Below are positions 42,698-63,641 of a stretch of 64,000 nt of DNA, in pieces. The notes beneath the pieces were generated by a model that was not told the origin of the DNA, did no database searches, and saw only the letters and a program-made list of their open reading frames with translations. A program made the position numbers and the translations under genes. The first letter of the stretch is position 1. Each line of letters opens with the position of its first letter. This DNA comes from Terriglobia bacterium (GTDB taxonomy: Bacteria; Acidobacteriota; Terriglobia; 20CM-2-55-15): positions 768,001 through 832,000 of the forward strand of contig CBDAOY010000005.1 of the NCBI GenBank assembly GCA_965198225.1, written 5' to 3'.

Positions 42698-43188
42698 GTG
42701 CGCCGTGAAAGGCGCCATTCCCCAGCGGGTGCGAACCCCGCCCGGCAACTGTCGCTCCAGCCGGTAGCAGTCGGAGCGGACGATGGAGGTAACGACATCG
42801 GCTGAAGCACTCCGATGACAAAGGGCCGCCCTGGGCGGTTCAGCGACCACGCGGGCCGCAACGATGTGAACGCTGCGCAGGCCTCGTAACGAAGCGATGC
42901 GGAAGCCGATCCGCCCGGAATACGGGGAAGGCTGCCAGCGGTCGGGAAGCGAGCGACGCGAGCACCGACCGGTTCCGCCGGGGTAGTAGCGGCGGCACGT
43001 GTGGAAGGGGGGGATGGACGCAACACGGGAAGCCCTGCCGGTGGCGTGGCATGCGCCAACCGACAGCCCGCGAGGGTCAGGTTGGGCCGACAGGGTGGCG
43101 GAGAGGTCCGCAGTACCAGGGAAGCCGGGTAATGCCGGTGGAGGGAAGGGACCTCAGTTCGAGAGCAGCGCATGACGGAGGAAGGGAC

Positions 43189-44415
43189 ATGAGGACTGGC
43201 GAGAGCCTAACAGCCTCGGAGAGAGTTCAGCGACTCCAGACGGCGCTACATGCGAAAGCGAAGGAAGCTCTGGGCTTCCGGTTCTACTCTCTGAGCGACA
43301 AGGTGTGGCGCGACGACGTGCTCGCAGTCGCCTGGCAGGCCGTGCGCCGCAACGGCGGCGCGGCCGGGGTGGACGGCGAGACGGTCGGAGACATCGAGGC
43401 GCTTGGGGTAGACCGGTGGCTGGGAGCACTGGCGCGGGACCTGAAGGAAGGGACCTATCGGCCGCATGCGGTTCGGCAGGTTCTCATCCGAATGCCGAAG
43501 AAGCAACGAGGGAAGTTCCGGCCGTTGGGCATTCCGTGTCTCCGGGATCGGGTGGTGCAGACGGCGGCGATGCTGGTGTTATCGCCGATCTTCGAAGCCG
43601 ACCTGCAACCGGAGCAGTATGCGTACCGGCCGGGCCGAGACGCGCATGATCGCAGGACGGGCCACCGGCGATCTGGTGTTACGCGCGTGCCATCGGCTGC
43701 TGAGGACGGGCCACCGGGAGGTGGTGGACGCCGCCGCACGAACCGGGCGCGTCACGAGCGGAAGGGGACCCCGCAAGGGTCTCCGATCTCGCCGCTGTTC
43801 AGCAACATCTACATGCGGCGCTTCATTCTGGGCTGGAAGGTGCTGGGCTACGCCCGGCACTTCAAGGCGGAAATCGTCAACTACGCGGATGACTTCGCGG
43901 TTCTCTGTCGCGCGCCGGCAGCGGTAATGCTAGCGGCGGTCGAAGCCCTGATGAAACGTCTGAAGTTGGCGATGAACGTTGAGAAGACCCGCTGCTGCCG
44001 GGTGCCGGAGGAATCGATGACGTTCCTCGGCTACCGGATTGGTTGCAACTACCGGCCGGACACGGGTACCGCCTACATAGGCACACGTCCGAGCCGGGAA
44101 AGCGTCCAGAGCATCTGCCGTCGTGTGAGCGAGTTGACCACGCCGCGTCACGCGCTCCTGCCGCCGGAGGTCGTAGTGGGACGCCTCAACCGGTTGCTGA
44201 CCGGTTGGGCGAACTACTTCACCCTGGGACAGGTCAGCCCGGCCTACGAGGCGATTGACCGGCACGCAACTCGGCGGCTGCGCCAGTGGCTCTGCCGTAA
44301 GCACAAGGTGCGGACCGGGAAACACGTGCGCTTCCCGGTCGAGCGGCTCTGGTCCGATTACGGGCTCACGCATCTTGCGCCGCGTACGGCGAGCTTTCCG
44401 TGGGCGAAGGCATGA
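43189..44415 (+). pseudogene. Intron A reverse transcriptase/maturase, internally deleted
   Basis: RPLGIP, GTPQGSPISPL, YADD, GWANYF; the RT3-RT4 region is largely missing. Confidence 0.85.
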
Positions 44416-44867
44416 TCTCGTCCGAGAGCCGGATGCGGGAAATCTGCATGTCCGGTTCGATGAGCGTTGCGCCTTGCAAGCGCATGAGATCCAGTCGCCT
44501 GAGATGGCGGCCGTGGCAGAGCCTAGCCGGCAGCCACGTACCGAGTCTTGCGTGGTGGTCGGTGACGGACACTGCGAAGCGTAGACAGGGAGGGAGTAGG
44601 CCGGAACACCAGTGAACGGAAAGATAGCCCCGAAATCGAACGTGGTTGAAGTAGCCGACCCTGTCGCTCTAGGGGGAAGGCGGAATCGCAGGGCACGCAA
44701 TGGCAAGTGCCCTGGGGTGCTTCCGGGGTTCGTACCGCCGGCATGCAACCAAGGATTTCATGGGAACAAGGGAGATCCGTCAGGTTCAAGCGGAGCTTGT
44801 AGGGTTGGACAAGCCAACAACGCGAGGAAGACCCGAAGGCCTGTCGGAAGTCAGACTGGCTGATAGT

Positions 44868-46096
44868 GCGTGCCTGGCAGCACGCGTTTCCGGCGGGTTA
44901 AAGTCCCGCTCGGCCCGAGGCCACGGGTCGATATCCAACAAGTGGGGGTAATGCCTCACTGGCCGAAGTGTAGACAGGTAGTGCAGATGCCTAAACGGGC
45001 ACGAAGGCGAAAGCCGGATACGGCCAAGGCAAAGCTGGAGCCAGCTACGGAAACTTTGGAGGGCAGGGCGCCCACCGCGAGGTGGGGTCTGAAGGGCATG
45101 AGGAGAACCACCGGGTCGTAATCGACGGGAGCCATCCCGAGGATGAACCGGTCGGCCAAAGATGGGGAATGGTCGAGCCCGCACTATTGGGGCGAAGGCG
45201 CATTGGTTCCACCCCATCGCACCAAGGTGTGTGCGGGCGACACGGTGGAGAAGAGACGCGAGTGACCCAGGGAGGCCTGGTATCGTCCGAGCGGAAGGTA
45301 AGGTCGAGATGATGTGGCACCCGCAGACGAAAGGGCGGGCAACCGAGAAGACAAACATCGACCTAGAGCCCTGCGCGGTAGGTGCGGATATAAGCGAGAG
45401 CGAAATTCCGGCCGACGCGGTGTCAGGAATCGGATCGGGGAATAGTACTCAGGAACGAGACGGCAAACATAAGGTCTCGGATCGTTGCTTCGAGCAGCGG
45501 CGCTGGCGGGTCCAAAAGGCCCGTTGGAGGGGGAAGTCCCCGTACTCAGTCGTGAATGTGCGAGCGATGGGAAACGCGGAGATATCGTGAACTTGGATAG
45601 TTCCCTTAGCGAAAGACCCAAACGCGGTACGAACGAAGCCGCCACCTGCCGCCACACAGCGAATTCCGAACGAGGAGCAACTGAGGAAAGCGGCTTGCGG
45701 GAAAACCGCACGAGCCGTTTGATTGAGCGGACGGTGGAAGGGCCGATCGGCCCGACCACTTTCGACTCTACACTCAGGAACGAGACGGCAAACATAAGGT
45801 CTCGGATCGTTGCTTCGAGCAGCGGCGCTGGCGGGTCCAAAAGGCCCGTTGGAGGGGGAAGTCCCCGTACTCAGTCGTGAATGTGCGAGCGATGGGAAAC
45901 GCGGAGATATCGTGAACTTGGATAGTTCCCTTAGCGAAAGACCCAAACGCGGTACGAACGAAGCCGCCACCTGCCGCCACACAGCGAATTCCGAACGAGG
46001 AGCAACTGAGGAAAGCGGCTTGCGGGAAAACCGCACGAGCCGTTTGATTGAGCGGACGGTGGAAGGGCCGATCGGCCCGACCACTTTCGACTCTAC
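44868..46096 (+). ncRNA. ORF-less group II intron C (904 nt, 44868-45771) plus a tandem copy of its 3' 325 nt
   Basis: DV AAAGCGGCTTGCGGGAAAACCGCACGAGCCGTTT, end GACTCTAC, EBS1 ACTATT at 45183-45188; 45447-45771 equals 45772-46096. Confidence 0.85.
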
Positions 46097-46222
46097 ACTC
46101 CGAGGTCGGGAGAGCCGATCACATGGGGAAGCGGCCAGCAGAAGTGGACTCGTTCTTGGGAAACATGAGCTCCATGCAACGGGAGGATACGGTCCTCTAT
46201 GCAACGAGAGGAACAACCAGTC

Positions 46223-47545
46223 ATGGAAACGAAACTGGAACGAATAGCGGCGAAAGCTCGGAGTGAGCCAAAGCTCCGGTTCACGTCACTGGCGCATCAT
46301 GTCACCCGAGAGCGTGTGTGGAAGAACCTGTGTCAAGTGCCCCGCAACACGGCTCCCGGATGTGATGGTCAGAGGGTACCGGAGGCGAAGGAGGAATTCG
46401 GAGTCTGGGTGGAGCCAATGCTCCAGTCTGTTCACCAGAAGGGATATCGCGCTCCGCCGATTCGGCGGGTGTATATCCCCAAGCCCGGCAAGCAGGAGAA
46501 ACGTCCCCTGGGCGTGCCCTGTGTTCAAGATCGGGCCCTTCAGCGCAGCGTGGCCGAGGTATTGGTCGCCATCTACGAGCAGGACTTCTTGCCCTGTTCC
46601 TTTGGTGGCCGGCCTGGGCTGGGCGCCCACAATGCACTGGCAACCCTCCATGAGGTGATTTCCGGATGCAAGGTGAGTTGGGTGTTGGAGGCGGACTTGA
46701 AGAACTTTTTCGGGAGTTTAGACCATGGATGGCTACTCCGCTTTGTGGAGCATCGAGTCGGAGATCCGCGGATCATCAGTCTGATACGACGATGGTTAAA
46801 GGCGGGCGTTTTCGAAGACGGGGAATTGCATTCGAACGAAGAGGGAACCCCGCAAGGTGGGTCGATCAGCGTTCTGCTGAGCAATCTGTACCTGCATTAT
46901 GTGCTTGACCTGTGGTTTGACCGGATGGTCCGGCCACGCCTGAAGGGTGAAGCGTATCTGGTGCGGTACATCGACGACTTTGTCGTGTGTTTCCAATATC
47001 GGGACGATGCGCTTCGTTTCCAGAACGTTCTGCGCAAGCGACTGGGAAAGTTTGGACTGGTTCCGGAGCCGACCAAGACGAAGCTCGTCGAATTCGGCCG
47101 CTATGCCCAGCGCGATGTCGTCCGGCGCGGGAGAAAACGTCCAGAGACGATCTATTTTCTGGGCATGACCCTGTACTGTACGCGTAATCGCAAAGGCAAT
47201 TTTAGAGTGGGACTGCGAACAGAGAAGTCTCGACTTCGACGCAGTCTGGCTCATCTACGCGGCGTGATGAGGCGAATGCGTCACTTGCCGGTCCGGGAGC
47301 AAGTGCACAATCTGAACCGAGTCTTGCGCGGGCACTACGCCTACTATGGCATTGCCGGGAACCTCCGGGCTCTGCAGCACGTCGCTCGGGCCGTGGAACG
47401 TTACTGGCGCCAAATGCTCAGCAGTCGTAGTCGTGCAGGCTTCGTCCGGTGGGAAGTATTCAACCGGATTCAGCTGCACTTTCCGTTACAGCGTCCCAAG
47501 TTGGCTCTCCGCTATCGGGAGTTCCAGTCTCTCGCTGTGCTGTAA
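46223..47545 (+). CDS. ltrA: Intron B reverse transcriptase/maturase (no En domain)
   Basis: YIPKPG..RPLGVP, EADLKNFF, GTPQGG, RYIDDF, RGHYAYY. Confidence 0.93.
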   Translation: METKLERIAAKARSEPKLRFTSLAHHVTRERVWKNLCQVPRNTAPGCDGQRVPEAKEEFGVWVEPMLQSVHQKGYRAPPIRRVYIPKPGKQEKRPLGVPCVQDRALQRSVAEVLVAIYEQDFLPCSFGGRPGLGAHNALATLHEVISGCKVSWVLEADLKNFFGSLDHGWLLRFVEHRVGDPRIISLIRRWLKAGVFEDGELHSNEEGTPQGGSISVLLSNLYLHYVLDLWFDRMVRPRLKGEAYLVRYIDDFVVCFQYRDDALRFQNVLRKRLGKFGLVPEPTKTKLVEFGRYAQRDVVRRGRKRPETIYFLGMTLYCTRNRKGNFRVGLRTEKSRLRRSLAHLRGVMRRMRHLPVREQVHNLNRVLRGHYAYYGIAGNLRALQHVARAVERYWRQMLSSRSRAGFVRWEVFNRIQLHFPLQRPKLALRYREFQSLAVL

Positions 47546-47631
47546 ATCCAATTCTGAAGAGCGCAGTGCGGGAAATCCGCACGCTGCGTTCTGTGGGAGC
47601 CGGAGGCGGGCAACTGCCTCCGGCCACCCGG

Positions 47632-49038
47632 GCGGATTCGGGCGCCGATTTTGAGAAGCTTCAGACGGATGGTCCCGCACTGGGCATGGGCCATCGCGGT
47701 ATCTTTGAGCCCGAGGCGTCGCAGGGCATGCATGAGCATGTACGCAGCTGAGGAGAGATAGAGCCGGAGCTGATTGGCGCGCATGGTCGCCGCGCTGGTC
47801 CGGTCCGCAAATAGGTCCAACTGCTGTTCCTTGATACGGTTCTCCATGTCGCCCCGCGCGCAGTAGAAGTCCTCATACAAAGCGCGGGCTTGGAAGCGTT
47901 CCGGCGGCAGGGAGGTCACGATGAATCGGGGATTGGCGCCCTTGTCCAGGAACTCCGCCTTGCCGACGACGCGTCGCGCGCGGGTCCAGCTGTTTAGAGT
48001 CCGGTACTGGAAATCCTTAAACACCCGCGCCGGTTTCCCGGTGGCGTTAAACTCCGCTTCCGCCTGAACCATTTCTTCAGCGATTTCTTGCTTGAGACGA
48101 CTGTTCTTGGCCAACCCGATCACATAATCGACCGGATGGGATTCACACCAGGCGAGCAGTTCATCCCTGCAAAAGCCCGAGTCGGCCCGGATGATGATCG
48201 ATACTGTGGGCCACACCTGTCGGATCTGACCGACGATGCGCTCTAACTCATCCACCGCTCCGTCGGCCCCGTCAATGTTGGAACGCCGGAGCCGGGCGCA
48301 CAGCAGATGTTCTCCCGAGAAGATGTACAACGGCAGGTAGCAGTAGTTGCCGTAGTAGCCGTGAAAGAACCGTCCTTCCTGGTTGCCATGGATCGTATCG
48401 TCGGTGGCATCCAGGTCCAGAACGATCTCAGAGGGCTCCGATTCGTGGGCCGCGATAAACGCGTCGACCATCCACCGGTCGATCTTGTCGCCATCCATGG
48501 CGATCTTCTTGTACCGCTCCTGGCCATCGACCTGCTCTGCGGTCAGTTCCAACCGGTTCAGCGTGCACTTGCCTGCCAACGCCTTTCCCCGGTCTCCGGC
48601 CTGCCGCCGGTTTTTTCCCAGTGGATCGGCCTTCTCCACCGCCACGGCCAGCATCGGATCGGTCCGTAGCTGGTCGTGGTCGTTCAGGTCCTCATAGCCC
48701 AAGCACAGTCCATAAATCCGCTGGCCCAACAACTCCTTCACGCTGTGTTCGATCAACCTCGGGTCCCGGTGATCGGTAAAACACTGCTCCAGTCCGGCGA
48801 TCAAACCCGTCCGCTTCTCGACTTCCCTCAACAGCAGAACACCCGCGTCGGAGGTGATCTTTCCGCCGTCGAATCGCGCCTTCACTTTCCGTTGAAAAAG
48901 TCCGTGAAATTCGAACGTGGCTTGCTTACACTCTGTTCTCATAAGGGCCGTCTCCGTTTGGGTTTTTAAACGTTTCTCGTCAAACGCTTTATGCCAAACA
49001 GGGCGGCCTTTTCTGGTCCTATCCGTGAAATATAGGGG
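47632..49038 (-). mobile_element. IS1380-family element, 3'-truncated (transposase from 48942)
   Basis: FDGGKITSDAG, LDLDATDD, RADSGF, RGDMENRIKE; left end CCCCTATATTTCACGGAT. Confidence 0.9.
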
Positions 49039-57312: not shown

Positions 57313-57936
57313 TTGGACGCCGCCTTGAAAACCGTCGCTTACCTCCGCGTCTCCACTCGTTCGCAGGACCTCGCCAACCAGAAGCTGGCGATCCTCGAGT
57401 TCAGCCAGAAACGCCGATTCCCGATCGACCAATTCATCGAGTCCCGGATCTCGTCGCGCAAGAGTCCGCTCGAGCGCCGCATTGACGAGATGTTGGGGAC
57501 GCTTCAGCCCGGCGACCGTCTGCTGGTCAGCGAGTTGTCGCGGCTCGGCCGCAGCCTCTCTCAGGTGATCCAGCTCGTGGAGACCCTGGTCCGGCGCAAG
57601 ATCCGCTTCATCGCCATCAAGGAGGCGATCGAGTTCGACGGCAAGCAGGACCTGCGGACTAAGGTGATGATCGCGCTGTTCGGATTGTTTGCCGAGGTCG
57701 AGCGGGACCTGATCTCAGAACGGACCAAGGAAGGACTCGCCTCTGCCAAAGCCAAGGGGAAACGGCTCGGCCGACCCAAGGGGGCCTTGGGAACATCCAG
57801 GCTCGACGGCAAGGAGCAAGACATCCGGGCGCTGTTGGGCAAGGATGTCTCCAAGGCCTCGATCGCCAAGATCCTGAACGTCTCCCGCTCCGCCCTCTAC
57901 CACTTTATCGAGACCCGCAAGATCGCTCCGGGCTGA
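57313..57936 (+). CDS. Serine recombinase/resolvase
   Basis: YLRVST, SELSRLGRS, AEVERDLISERTKEG, C-terminal HTH. Confidence 0.9.
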   Translation: MDAALKTVAYLRVSTRSQDLANQKLAILEFSQKRRFPIDQFIESRISSRKSPLERRIDEMLGTLQPGDRLLVSELSRLGRSLSQVIQLVETLVRRKIRFIAIKEAIEFDGKQDLRTKVMIALFGLFAEVERDLISERTKEGLASAKAKGKRLGRPKGALGTSRLDGKEQDIRALLGKDVSKASIAKILNVSRSALYHFIETRKIAPG

Positions 57937-57973: not shown

Positions 57974-58166
57974 GTGCACCGTGAGAAGGCGCCAATCCTC
58001 AGCGGGTGCGAATCCCGCCCGGCAACTGTCGCTCCAGTCGGTAGCAATCGGAGCGGATGGTGGAGGTAACAACATCGTCTGAAGCACTCCGATGACAAAG
58101 GGCCGCCTCGGGCGGCTCAGCGACCACACAGGCCACAACGCGAGTAAACGCCGAGCAGGCCTCGTA
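57974..58166 (+). mobile_element. 5' fragment of a group II intron related to intron A (intron D)
   Basis: Collinear with 42698-42888; broken by IS1111. Confidence 0.85.
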
Positions 58167-59304
58167 TGTGGACGCCCCCCTGGTTGGCAAGCCTGACTTC
58201 GAACCGAGGATCGGTGGCATTCAGGTCAGGTACGGTCGTATGTGCGGCCTCTTGATGCGGCACTTGCTGGCCGCGGGCCCGTATGGTGTTCGTGAGATCG
58301 GATCCAAATCGAAACGACGGGCTCGATGGCCCTTCGAGGCCTACTGGTTTTTCCGATCCCGTCTTGTCGACCGTTTGCCCCTACCTTGTCCGACGTCCTG
58401 CTTGCACTCTCCAGTTGGAACCTCCGTGGCCCGTGTCCATCCGCCCAGGCTGCCAGCCGAACGAGTTCCTCTCTCTTCTCCGCGTTTCTGATCTCGCCGA
58501 CCCTTCTTCGCTCCACTGATCTGACTCGCAACCCTACGCTGTAGCCGCAACGGCCTTTGTCATTCCCCGTGCCCTGTAGCTCTCCACCTTCACCGTCATG
58601 GCCCAGATGATGCGTGCCATCCTGTTGGCCAGAGCCACCGCAACCACCTTCCTCGGCTTTTCGTCCAGCATCCGGCCAAGCCAGGGATCGGGGACCTCCC
58701 TCCGCCGGATGGCACTCGAGATGACCGCCGTCGCCCCCAGGCACAGGAGCCTCCGGATGTCGCGCTGTCCCATCTTTGTGATCCCCCCCAGCCGTTGGCG
58801 ACCACCCGTCGAGGATTCACGCGGCGTGATCCCGACCCATGCCGCAAAGTCACGTCCATTACGGAAGCTCTCCATTGGTGGCGCGAACGCGTGCACCGCC
58901 ATTGCCGTGAGCTCTCCCACCCCTGGGATCGTCATCAGGCGCCCGAGCGCCTCATCTTCCCTCACGATGTGCCGGATCTCCCGGTCCAGCTCATCGATCT
59001 CCGCATCCAGATCGTGGGTCCGCTCGATGAGGCGGCGTATAGCGGGAGGCACCAGCGCCGGGAAACACTCTTCACGCTCCGCGAACACCTCCTCCAGCCT
59101 CCCGACGTTGTGGGTCCCAAGCGGAGCGACGAGTCCGAACTCCGCGAGATGACCCCGCAGCGCGTTGATCGTCTGTGTCCGCTGGTGCACCAGCATTGCC
59201 CGGGCCCGGAACACCACCGATCGTGCCTGCTCCTCCTCGGTCTTCACGGCCACGAACCGCATCGTCGGCCGCTGGGCCGCCTCGACGATCGCTCCCGCGT
59301 CGTT
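58167..59304 (-). mobile_element. IS110/IS1111-family element, 5'-truncated (transposase to 58534; ~370-nt 3' non-coding region)
   Basis: LMTIPGVG, FAAWVGITP.ESSTGG, VAVALANRMAR; sub-terminal GGGGCGTCCACAT. Confidence 0.88.
58170..58530 (-). ncRNA. Putative IS1111 seekRNA/bridge RNA
   Basis: Guide-hairpin-guide loop at 58310-58342 matching both flanks of the target. Confidence 0.7.
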
Positions 59305-61722
59305 GGGGTCATCGCAAGGTTTGTACCTGAAATTACTCTAAGGGAGGATCTGGCGAATAATTGGACTGCGGAGCCTCGTTGATCAATCCGATCAGGATGC
59401 TGCGGCCCTCGTCGGTATGGAATGCCGCCCGGGCGGCGAGATCAATCGCCGTTCCCCTGTCGTCGGGCACGAAGGGCCGCAGCCCAAGGTGCCGGATGGC
59501 CAACTGCCTGTGGGACGAACGCGTCGCGTTCCGGGTGCCGTAACCAGCCAGGGCCGAGGTGACGAAGAAGCGCGATATGAATCGCCAATCCAAGCCGGTT
59601 TTCAGCGCTTCTCCGCGTGCAGATCAGATCCAGATCGTCATCGGCCAGAACGTAATTCCGTTCCAGCGAGGCGGTGTCGGAGAGAACCCCGAACAAGGTT
59701 TCGCGAACGGAGGCCGACACTAGATGTCGTGAAGCCATGGCATGTCCCAAAAATGCTGGGGTCTATTTTGAGACTGCCCATAATATAGAAACGAATAAAG
59801 AGACACTTCGAAAGCCCGGAATGGAGGTGAAATGGCCCATCCTGAAACCGTCCCTGAAACGAACCAGACTGTGTGAAAAGTCCAAGTCGTGGATCGCTGA
59901 TCCGGCAACACCGAAGGGCAAGCACGATGACGGACCCGTGGCGACGCAGATCACTCGGGGCTGCCAGCCTTTTCGGTGGCGTGAGGTGTTGCTGTGACTG
60001 GGAAACGCGGGATGGAGGCGGATTGTTGCGCCAAAAACAGGCGGATTACCCGGTCAAACCGCTGCGACGGCAATCAAGGCGGGAATTCCTACGAGGTTGA
60101 TTGCGCGGCGCATGTTGTAGGCCAAGGCGGTGAGGCTGAACTCCCCGCGGACATTGCCGAGTCGGCGCGTCAGGAACGCGCCTTGGCCCATCCACTGCTT
60201 GATCGAACCGAAGGGATGCTCGACCGACTCCCGGCGACGATCCATCACCTCGGGCCGGGCGGCGAGACGGTTCGCCATGCGCTCCATCGTTGCTTCGTTC
60301 TCGAAGCGCGTGATGCGCCGATAGGTGTTCTTGGTACATCGTTCGCGTAGACCGCAGCCTCTGCATGCGGCGCGGTTGGCGTAACTGACAAGATACGTGC
60401 CTGTGCGCGACTTACCGACGCTTCCGCGATACAACGGCACCAGGCGCTCACCAGCGGGGCACCGGTAGGTGTCCGTGGAGTCGTCGTATTGGAAATCGGA
60501 CTTCGGAAAGTGGCCACTGCGTCTGGCCGTGCTCCGGTCGGGCTTCGGAACGTAGGGCGTGATCCCGGCGGCTTCGCAGTCCTCAATGTCTTCGATCTTG
60601 TAGTAGCCTCGGTCCGCGACCGCGTCGATCTCGTCGACAGCCAAGTTCTCCCGAGCCGCTGTGGCCGTCTCCGCGAGCAGACCGAGGTCCGAGACCTTGC
60701 TATGGACCTGCTGTTCGGCGATCAGGTTGTGCTCAGTGTCGACAGCGATCTGGACGTTGTAGCCGACTCCGACCCGTGTCCCGGAATGCATTGACCGGGA
60801 GTCCGGATCCGTAAGCGACAGCTGGGCTTCTCCGGTATCGTCCAGCGTCTGCCGATGCCCCTCCAAGGTCTCCTTTCTCTTACGGATCGATGCGATCTTC
60901 TCCTGAAGATCCGCCACGGCAGCCGCTCTGCCGCCGGCATCATCCGCGTCGGCCTCGTTCACCTGGTCGAGGTAGCGGTCGAGTCGGTCGTCGATACGCT
61001 GCAGGTCCGTCTTCAGCTTGGCCCGCGTGAAGTTGCGGTCCCGGTGGTTCACCGCCTTGATGCGCGTGCCGTCCACGGCGATCAACTCCCGCCCGTACAG
61101 GTCGAGTTCCCGGCACAACCGCACGAACCGCCGAAACACCGCCCGGAACGCATGCCGATTGTCGCGCCGGAAGTCGGCGATCGTCTTGAAGTCGGGCTTC
61201 AGCTGGCGTAGCAGCCAGATCGCCTCGAGGTTGCGATGCGTCTCTGTCTCCAGCCTGCGGCTCGACCGAATACGATTCAGATACCCGTAGATATACAGCT
61301 TCAGCAGATCCGCGGGATCGTAGCCTGGACGGCCCTTGTCGTTGGGCCGAACGCGCTGGAATCCAGCCGCCTCAAGGTCGAGACCGTCGACGAATGCATC
61401 AATGAAACGGACCGGGTTGTCCGGTCCCACGTAGTCGTCCACAGTATCGGGCAGAAGCAGAAGCTGGGAACGGTCTTCACCGGTGATATGTGCCATGACA
61501 CATTTTACCAACCGCCATGGGGAACCTGATGCCAGTTCACCGACTCCCGCCCGGCTGTCGCCGACTTTTCACACAGTCTGGAACGTTAAAGAGACGGACG
61601 GCCCGGCCCGCAACGGTGACATCCTCGGTTATGCCCGGGTCTCGACTGCGGCACAGGATGCCGCCAGCCAGCAGGATCGGCTGCGGGAGGCCGGCGCCAT
61701 TCGCGTGTTCGTCGACGTGATT
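59305..61722. mobile_element. Tn3-family remnant: 38-bp TIR 59305-59342, tnpA N-terminal fragment (-, from ~59740), res region, tnpR N-terminal fragment (+, ~61610-61722)
   Basis: GGGGTCATCGCAAGGTTTGTACCTGAAATTACTCTAAG; RRSAENRLGLAIHIALLRH; GYARVST. Confidence 0.8.
59865..61580 (-). mobile_element. IS1182-family element, apparently intact (transposase 60054-61496)
   Basis: IRs CAGACTGTGTGAAAAGTC / GACTTTTCACACAGTCTG; GAAC duplication; VDGTRI, ADRGY, VEHPFG. Confidence 0.93.
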
Positions 61723-62853: not shown

Positions 62854-63141
62854 ATGGCTCAGGCGAACGTGACCAAGAGCGAGCGAGTAAATCTAAGGCT
62901 CAACGCGACGGCGAAGCTGCGGATCGAACGGGCGGCTTCGTTTGAAGGGAAAACCGTCAGCGGCTTTATTGTGTCGAGCGCCCTGGAAAACGCAGAGAAG
63001 GCCATCCAGAAGCACGAAACGATGGCTCTCGACCAGCGTGATGCCAAGCGCTTCTTCGATGTCATCATCAATCCGCCAGCCTTGAACAATAGACTCCGCA
63101 CGGCTATGGATGAGCATGGGAAACGCGTTGCCTCGCGATGA
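62854..63141 (+). CDS. DUF1778 (TacA-like) antitoxin
   Basis: KSERVNLRL..IERAA..TVSGFI..F..I.NPP. Confidence 0.9.
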   Translation: MAQANVTKSERVNLRLNATAKLRIERAASFEGKTVSGFIVSSALENAEKAIQKHETMALDQRDAKRFFDVIINPPALNNRLRTAMDEHGKRVASR

Positions 63142-63641
63142 GAGACCTGGACGCGCTCATTATAGAGCCGCTCGGGAAGCGACATGACCGAGCGGCTTTT
63201 TCTTGTGGGCTTCCAGAATTAGACCGCTACCTTGCTCGGCAGGCTGGGCAGGATGTTCGTCGTCGTATTGCCAGGGTGTTTGTCTGCACTACCGATGGTT
63301 CCAATACCATCCTCGGCTTCTACACGTTGAGCGCCCTCGCGATAGACCTGAGTTCTCTACCCGAAGAGCTGTCTCGAAAGCTACCCCGACATCCGGTGCC
63401 CTGTGCCCTTATCGGTCGACTTGCTGTCGACCAGTCAGTACGGGGGCACGGTTTGGGGCGTATGCTTCTCGTCGATGCGATCAAGCGAACCATGGGCGCT
63501 AGTGACGTTATGGCAATCCATGCCGTGATCGTAGATGCCAAGAATAATGCAGCGAAACAGTTCTACGAGGTGTATGGTTTCGCCCCGATGCAGGACGATC
63601 CCATGCGGCTCTTTTTACCGCTCGGCTCGATCCCTCTTTAA
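63138..63641 (+). CDS. GNAT acetyltransferase toxin (TacT-like)
   Basis: HDRAAFSCG..LDRYL, LIGRLAVD..RGHGLG, VDAKN..A..FY..YGF. Confidence 0.92.
   Translation: MRDLDALIIEPLGKRHDRAAFSCGLPELDRYLARQAGQDVRRRIARVFVCTTDGSNTILGFYTLSALAIDLSSLPEELSRKLPRHPVPCALIGRLAVDQSVRGHGLGRMLLVDAIKRTMGASDVMAIHAVIVDAKNNAAKQFYEVYGFAPMQDDPMRLFLPLGSIPL

Follow-up and report, generated by a model that had tools for sequence, protein, structure and literature searches.

Which DNA does an insertion sequence (IS) of the IS1111 group recognise when it is found inside a group II intron, and by what means does it recognise it? The question is raised by a locus in a 64,000-nucleotide stretch of a Terriglobia bacterium genome (the window, i.e., C5:768001-832000 of a 6.4-Mb, 9-contig assembly, our own genome G000), where the 5' part of a group II intron (intron D) ends at an IS that we call IS-1. 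The initial annotation of this DNA proposed that a non-coding RNA of the IS carries two guides directed against the intron, and the strings that it quoted are all present where it placed them, i.e., AGGCCTCGTA at 58157-58166, AGGCCTCGTAACGAAGCGA at 42879-42897, and on the minus strand AGGCCUCG at 58335-58342, a hairpin at 58319-58332 and UCGUUUCG at 58310-58317. We propose that IS-1 is very probably an RNA-guided element programmed to a 13-bp site in the intron, with a mechanism as in the IS110/IS1111 family. The parts of the locus are as follows.

57974-58164, plus strand: 5' fragment of intron D, 191 nt, cut by the IS (Rfam RF02003 at 58000-58143, 82.8 bits)
58163-58164, no strand: CG core common to the target and the IS ends, from both junctions of full-length copies compared with empty sites
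58165-59306, minus strand: window copy of IS-1, 5'-truncated, with 1142 of 1512 bp left and 98.3% identity to the full-length copies

IS-1 and its site in the intron

The 1134 bases that adjoin the intron recur twice more in the genome at 98% identity, and two full-length copies of the element, 1512 bp long, are found elsewhere in the genome at the same intron position. These copies start with CG-ATGGAGTGGACGCCCCC, finish with GGGGGGCGTCCACATA(-CG), and have subterminal inverted repeats of 12-13 bp (GTGGACGCCCCC / GGGGGCGTCCAC) that are set in from both tips. The transposase gene (tnp) encodes 348 aa, with the motif GITPRESSTG read in the translation, and it is flanked by non-coding regions (NCRs) of ~90 nt on the 5' side versus 369 nt on the 3' side. 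In one full-length copy (tnp at L003:1218-2264, whole element at L003:1125-2636) both PF01548 (DEDD; E 2.9e-15) and PF02371 (E 1.2e-21) are matched, and NCBIfam NF033542, 'IS110 family RNA-guided transposase', gives 319.8 bits for the full-length protein (cut-off 140). The nearest solved structures by sequence are the transposases of ISCro4 (E 3.3e-14) and IS621 (E 5.6e-11) (structures 8wt6, 9t56). The IS1111 transposase motif is defined as GL-P----S(t)G in the excerpts of PMC11187229 used here. Every sequence-level feature of the IS1111 group that we tested is found in IS-1, i.e., a DEDD domain with PF02371, subterminal inverted repeats in the range of 7-17 bp, a longer NCR downstream and a protein of 330-350 aa, and we classify IS-1 as a member of this group. 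The annotated membership of IS110/IS1111 is borne out by NF033542 and by both Pfam domains in the full-length copies, and a non-coding RNA downstream of the open reading frame (ORF), as in IS1111, agrees with the long NCR 3' of the transposase gene.

The host is a group II intron. RF02003 is matched at 58000-58143 and again at 42723-42866, in a second intron of the window (intron A) with an ORF at 43051-44415 that carries RVT_1 and GIIM, and an uninterrupted copy of the intron D subtype (L106) matches both RF02003 and RF00029 (domains V-VI). All three copies of IS-1 in the genome are found at the same position of this one subtype, here called D-type, and all of them, the window copy included, are antisense to the intron. 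By searching the genome with the intron, we found D-type copies that run uninterrupted through the site at C5:610252, C6:7952 and C6:838810. The empty site reads AGGCCTCGAAACG in intron orientation (D-type target site: CGTTTCGAGGCCT) and ...GCGTTT-CG-AGGCCT... in IS orientation. In the full-length copies, again in IS orientation, the left junction is GCGTTT-CG-ATGGAG... and the right junction is ...CACATA-CG-AGGCCT. Comparison of the occupied and empty sites gives a sequence-specific insertion with no target duplication beyond CG, and a target of 13 bp, CGTTT-CG-AGGCCT. The TA in the annotated 'AGGCCTCG-TA' belongs to the IS end (...CACATA). The target corresponds to nt 184-196 in an intron of ~1.9-2.0 kb, 14 nt beyond the RF02003 match, and from this position it likely lies in domain I.

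In 6.4 Mb there are three exact occurrences of the 13-mer, where base composition predicts 0.27, and each of them is in a D-type intron. The presence of every IS-1 copy in a D-type intron would then be explained, because the 13-mer occurs nowhere else in the genome. Three cognate sites are empty and three are occupied, so IS-1 is present at 3 of 6, and it is present at none of the 15 sites with one mismatch, which include three intron sites of another subtype; these counts are too small for a statistical test of discrimination. One site of the mismatched kind lies in the window.

42879-42891, plus strand: unoccupied near-cognate site of intron A, AGGCCTCGTAACG, with one mismatch next to the core

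Intron A had been taken for an empty cognate target. In the correct register its site is CGTTACGAGGCCT, with one mismatch, and the cognate empty targets are found outside the window. Among the same-genus genomes G001-G003, no IS-1 was found; a related intron that is 76-77% identical is present once each in G002 and G003, and none was found in G001. In contigs of public runs from other samples, uninterrupted introns read AGGCCTCG|AAACG.

The predicted guide RNA and its covariation with the target

The RNA region and its parts are located in the NCR downstream of tnp.

58232-58374, minus strand: bridge/seekRNA region with an outer stem of ACGGUCG to CGACCGU and both loops inside (fold and consensus structure)
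58335-58342, minus strand: T guide, AGGCCU + CG, pairs with the top strand of the right flank CG-AGGCCT as read in IS orientation; the homologous position varies in relatives
58319-58332, minus strand: hairpin between the guides, GGGC-loop-GCCC; pair 53:68 is changed from GC to UA or AU in three sequences
58310-58316, minus strand: B guide, CGUUU + CG, same sequence as the left flank CGTTT-CG on its top strand, hence pairs with the bottom strand
58236-58293, minus strand: candidate donor-binding loop, with a 3' strand (GCACAUACGA) that reads as the right IS end plus core and a 5' strand (ACACCAUACG) that fits the left end imperfectly

The first guide, AGGCCUCG, is placed 5' of the second, CGUUUCG, and the two overlap on CG in the target. 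In IS-1 all 11 variable guide positions (6 + 5) match the target. The first guide does match the flank as annotated, since it pairs with CGAGGCCT adjoining the IS. The second guide had been paired with CGAAGCGA of intron A across a TAA spacer and with one G-U pair, and this is the wrong register: CGUUUCG matches seven bases with no mismatch and no spacer. The register AGGCCTCG-TAA-CGAAGCGA on intron A is ruled out by the empty sites of the same subtype and by 18 relatives, in which the guides overlap on CG.

The minimum free energy fold of 146 nt at 58230-58375 (minus strand) has z = -2.68, and none of 200 shuffles folds as well. In this fold UAGGCCU and UUUCGAU are on opposite sides of an internal loop. 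This target loop is closed on the outside by CCAG/UUGG and GGGAUCGG/UCCGAUC, and on the inside by CGA/UCG and the GGGC hairpin. For the consensus structure we aligned 19 sequences, i.e., the window copy, one full-length copy of the own genome and 17 relatives. It has 32 pairs with 98.4% of the cells paired, a figure that is favoured by taking the structure from the same alignment on which it is scored. Six pairs are changed on both sides compared with 2.6 in shuffles, a number that 0 of 500 shuffles reach, and when the partners are slid by 1-3 columns the pairing drops to 25-44%. The RNA scaffold has a mean column identity of 78%, and the guide segments are its most variable columns.

The second loop is probably the donor-binding loop. 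Across five clades its 3' strand follows the right end as that end varies (CACAUACGA, AGAUACG, ACAUAUG, AUACAUU and AUAUAUG). Its 5' strand can pair with the left end along 10 nt in L017/L027 and along 7 nt in L085. With this donor loop, the RNA would probably be a two-loop bridge RNA of the type that is placed in the right end of IS1111 elements, a placement given in the excerpts of PMC11208160 that we draw on.

Contigs from the RNA libraries of public runs cover the 5' part of the intron at high depth and the IS NCR at a depth of only ~3-4, which is no proof of transcription. The NCR contigs are X20 record 26 (58163-58380), X20 record 27 (58351-58423) and X17 record 13 (58385-58561). The first of these low-depth contigs, from a metatranscriptome library, is a relative of the IS 3' region with 15 differences, and it appears to come from a differently programmed sibling in another sample, because the differences cluster in the first guide and the hairpin.

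Do guides and flanks change together in other elements? A contig scan with the IS-1 protein gave 66 loci, and both ends were found in 22 of them by a regular expression for the end motifs of the clade. The remaining 44 loci, and 8 of 34 in the other locus set, were left out when end-finding failed, the causes being end motifs that differ in more distant relatives, contig ends and nested insertions. CG is present at both ends in 20 of the 22 clade members with ends found; an exception is L095, the right end of which is probably mis-set. To the 22 loci we added L004 of the own genome and from these we dropped five (L004 itself for its misfit to the scaffold regular expression, L048 with its flank off the contig, and the duplicates L056, L060 and L087), leaving 18 distinct guide/flank sets. 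This set holds no IS-1 copy from the own genome, and L095 was kept in it. Six positions 5' of CG in the first guide and five positions 5' of CG in the second guide were scored. The expected covariation is present: the guides match their flanks at a mean of 9.0 of 11 positions compared with 4.09 after permutation (maximum 6.28), 0 of 20,000 permutations reach the observed value, and restricting the test to the 16 distinct guide pairs does not change the result. We consider a chance match of the predicted guides to the site to be excluded, because all 11 positions match in IS-1 and because guides and flanks covary in the 18 relatives.

A more distant clade, found among 150 related genomes, has the same layout on a different scaffold. 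Junction-adjacent matches of 8-11 nt are seen in L013, L015, L016, L020, L023, L024, L026, L027, L036, L037 and L039. The top-strand guide match is weaker or absent in L007, L008, L010, L019, L031, L035 and L038, and the ends are uncertain in L011 and L032.

Proposed mechanism and alternative explanations

The mechanism that we propose is as follows. A DEDD transposase would be guided by an RNA from the 369-nt NCR downstream of its gene. The 5' strand of the target loop (AGGCCU+CG) would pair with the top strand in the right half of the target, and the 3' strand (CGUUU+CG) with the bottom strand in the left half, both strands being read over the shared CG core. A second loop further 3', the candidate donor loop, would match the IS's own ends. 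As we infer from published work on the family, the RNA would be made, bind the transposase and direct recombination via a circular intermediate, and the insertion would split the 5' ribozyme part of the intron. The anatomy of the element, its target, the occupied and empty sites and the guide-flank covariation can all be read in the DNA itself.

Several observations weigh against this mechanism. Rfam gave no hit for the IS-1 RNA at gathering thresholds, nor any with E of 1 or below on 58150-58560; this RNA is outside the curated families. A sigma-70-like promoter is absent from 58100-58700, which is uninformative for this organism. In the donor loop of IS-1, comparison by eye of the 5' strand with the left end shows one mismatch and, next to the core, an additional A. 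The window copy is unable to make a transposase, as the DEDD domain is absent. There are only three insertions in the genome and the intron copies are nearly identical, so that spread by recombination is possible for any single copy. Finally, some relatives do not follow their guides, or do so only in part: L057 matches at 3 of 11 positions, L102 at 7 of 11 and L053 at 8 of 11. L095 matches at 5 of 11, with a right end that is probably mis-set.

These outliers, L057, L053 and L102, lead us to conclude that either the guide-flank rule is not absolute or the RNAs act in trans between sibling copies. L053 carries the guides of L050 and sits at the target of L051, and both L053 and L057 come from one assembly (metagenome-assembled genome (MAG) record CBDCSZ01) with many sibling copies of different guides. 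In L053 and L057 the element's own guides misfit the flanks and those of a sibling fit or nearly fit. This suggests that guide RNAs may act in trans between co-resident copies.

Is the intron itself what the element is directed to? The mechanism could be as proposed and the link to the intron incidental, i.e., the 13-mer happens to lie in an intron; we judge this to be possible, though on the unlikely side. In its favour, Rfam found no group II intron at the 20 scanned loci of further relatives, and the closest protein relatives (87-88% identical) have other guides and other targets. On the other side stands an ortholog in a second genome (L041 and L042, one MAG record), which sits twice at the same intron site, between ...CCGTTT-CG and CG-AGGCCTGCTCGG, with RF02003 matches adjoining. 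Its guides are AGGCCU+CG and CCGUUU+CG, i.e., the same 6+5 variable positions as in IS-1, even though the two IS are 81.5% identical in nucleotides (85% in protein) and the introns of the two genomes are ~80% identical. In that genome four unoccupied introns reach the site, and none of them fits the guides without a mismatch (AGACCTCGAAACGG and AGGCCTCGAAACAT in one copy each, AGGCCTCGAAACAC in two). The site is also conserved across intron variants, and IS1111 members favour repeated mobile DNA according to the excerpts of PMC11208160. In L042 the IS is itself interrupted by a further insertion of ~1.5 kb. Intron targeting would belong to this guide pair, which is kept in two genomes, and would not extend to the clade, because the loci of the other relatives hold no intron and the closest relatives carry other guides. 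The annotated recombinase specialised on introns can thus be retained for this guide pair, which has an ortholog at the same intron site, and not for the clade (0 of 20 loci).

What one of the closest relatives (87-88%) is directed to can be seen in a MAG record (OZ242253.1; L040 2383-2440 and 3850-5330, L069 2384-2440). Its guides, GCAUUG/GGCAU, match GGCAT-CG-CAATG in the left NCR of its own family, and its copies are nested in or stacked on siblings. Because of these two observations, this IS appears to target its own kind.

A second IS in the same intron bears on the incidental link as well. IS-2 is an IS1111-type element of ~1455 bp with a transposase that is 37% identical to that of IS-1 and scores 307.3 bits on NF033542. 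Its four identical copies (L007-L010) are at the following positions.

C5:608362-609820: IS-2 copy
C5:744853-746311: IS-2 copy
C5:838642-840100: IS-2 copy
C4:355363-356821: IS-2 copy

Two of them are in intron copies at AAAGCCG|GGTAATG, ~245 bp further into the intron, and the other two are in non-intron DNA at a similar TTACC-CG-GCT, which supports an incidental link. The second guide of IS-2, UUACCCGG, matches all four sites, and the first has a better fit at the non-intron sites than at those in the intron. The intron is one of several sites acceptable to IS-2. The non-intron DNA has an 'ADGAYD'-like frame, possibly of a DDE transposase, in which stop codons interrupt the expected frame.

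Could a single event have given all three IS-1 copies? If one ancestral insertion had occurred and the intron with its IS had been copied by retrohoming, segmental duplication or gene conversion, the guide match would be uninformative on targeting. The intron flanks of the three copies are nearly identical (1 difference in 193 nt between the window copy and L002) and cannot separate events, as this explanation would have it. However, the three host introns are at different loci with different upstream DNA, and the occupancy is combinatorial, i.e., IS-1 only (L002), IS-1 and IS-2 (L003), IS-2 only (C5:610252) and both sites empty (C6:7952); the IS-2 site of the window copy is lost. The IS-1 copies differ by 8-19 substitutions, more than the flanks do; the window copy and L003 differ by 19 mismatches in 1142 with no gaps. 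Moreover, the guide match recurs in 18 relatives and in the ortholog of another genome, and an intron with 1.5 kb inserted antisense in its 5' ribozyme part should be unable to splice and hence to retrohome. We consider a single copied insertion to be very unlikely, and the simplest reading is that the three IS-1 insertions were independent.

Lastly, the transposase might read the site by protein-DNA contacts like classical site-specific recombinases with the complementary RNA as a bystander, and the IS ends are indeed highly conserved across the clade, such that a protein could read them, but this has very little chance of being correct, given that transposases 60-88% identical to that of IS-1 sit at unrelated targets that track two variable RNA segments, that guides and target both differ in the nearest relative by protein (88%), and that in four IS1111 members the seekRNA is required and reprogrammable (excerpts of PMC11187229).

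The surrounding locus, known systems and meaning

The window copy of IS-1 has lost its left part, and the following features are found in and next to it.

58168-58180, minus strand: right subterminal inverted repeat GGGGGGCGTCCAC, then the 3-nt extension ATA; its partner GTGGACGCCCCC is at the left end of the full-length copies
58534-59262, minus strand: transposase remnant frame, 242 aa from an internal Met, with PF02371 only (E 1.7e-21), without PF01548
59305-59342, no strand: 38-bp GGGG...TAAG terminal repeat that truncates IS-1; homology to the full-length IS stops there
59442-59750: DUF4158 (Tn3 transposase N-terminal) fragment, from Pfam

The 5' third of this copy is replaced by the 38-bp repeat, which we take to be a Tn3-family end from its resemblance to the inverted-repeat consensus of that family, and then by the DUF4158 fragment. 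A genome search did not find the lost left end elsewhere in the genome. The window copy is a non-autonomous remnant with an intact RNA region, because the DEDD domain is absent. The annotated IS at intron D can be kept as an IS1111-type RNA-guided IS in an intron, and not as a complete mobile element (1142 of 1512 bp, DEDD gone). Five further copies in the genome share 99.5% identity with the fragment of intron D, and the remainder of this intron is absent from the locus. The fragment starts with GTGCA at 57974 instead of GTGCG, and the intron copy of L003 is without the first two bases. A 17-nt sequence, TTATGTTGTATTTCAAC or variants of it, precedes several D-type introns (window 42698 and 57974, L002, C5:610252) and is presumably the homing site.

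Intron A is directly followed by another intron, B, and the order of A/D and then B recurs at L107. Intron B (window 44502-47633) has RF02005 at 44502-44736, ~1.4 kb between this 5' ribozyme part and the ORF, a reverse transcriptase ORF at 46199-47545 and domains V-VI at 47557-47633; no Pfam family was matched by the minus-strand ORFs at 44786-46216 inside it. The region around IS-1 is dense in mobile and accessory genes (47512-48942, 57313-57936, 60054-61511 and 62854-63641). These regions hold a DDE_Tnp_1_4 transposase, a serine resolvase just upstream of intron D, a putative 485-aa transposase-like ORF, and a pair of small ORFs that by its look is a candidate antitoxin and GNAT-toxin module.

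Among known systems, IS-1 is most readily compared with the IS1111 elements for which seekRNAs are described, ISEc11, ISPa11, ISKpn4 and ISPst6. In the excerpts of Siddiquee et al. 2024 (PMC11187229), these have a DEDD transposase of 330-350 aa with a G-x-x-P-x4-(S/T)G motif, subterminal inverted repeats with short terminal extensions, a long NCR downstream of tnp and a target of its own for each IS, and the top-strand match is 5' of the bottom-strand match with overlap in the target. IS-1 is similar in these features. The comparison is made with their descriptions, and IS-1 is known from its sequence alone. It differs in its target, a group II intron site and not a REP element, an attC site or a Tn21-type terminal repeat, which are among the known IS1111 targets in the excerpts of PMC11208160. 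IS-1 is also similar to the IS621/IS110 bridge RNA recombinases, which belong to the same protein family and, in those excerpts (Durrant et al. 2024), have an RNA with two internal loops, for the target and for the IS ends, each of which reads both DNA strands around a shared core dinucleotide. In contrast to IS621, the RNA of IS-1 is in the right end, 3' of the gene, and not in the left end. The IS621 core is CT, and IS-1 further differs from IS621 by its CG core, its long subterminal repeats and a donor loop that is only partly matched. Like IS4321/IS5075 in the ends of the Tn21 family and the IS1111-attC elements, IS-1 is a site-specific IS1111 member that lands in a conserved sequence of another mobile element. 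Unlike in these cases, the host of IS-1 is a retroelement ribozyme and the insertion splits the 5' part of its catalytic RNA.

In a full-text literature search of open-access papers, taken without their supplements, which may list such IS, we found no report of an IS110/IS1111 element that targets a group II intron. IS-1 thus represents a known mechanism with a new class of target, a well-supported natural example that is no surprise for the field.

RNA-guided IS110/IS1111 recombinases are under development as genome-writing tools, and natural examples that reveal targeting rules are useful. The clade described here gives a read-out of such rules from sequence only, i.e., a CG core, 6 + 5 variable guide positions and a top-strand guide 5' of the bottom-strand guide. 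The same read-out includes natural near-cognate sites that are left empty and apparent mismatched insertion where sibling copies coexist.

For the biology of these elements, IS-1 would be a DNA transposon programmed against a retroelement ribozyme, and this fits the idea that repeated, dispensable mobile DNA serves as landing sites. Because each insertion should kill the intron copy that it enters, the IS and the intron may shape each other's copy number. A bolder and rather doubtful hypothesis is that this lineage of bridge-RNA IS lives as a persistent parasite on a single group II intron family. The guide pair would then be kept as the IS and intron diverge between genomes, even though the nearest relatives are freely reprogrammed, and the self-multiplying intron would be a renewable safe harbour with each entered copy inactivated. 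If this is true, the IS would be a natural brake on the spread of the intron.

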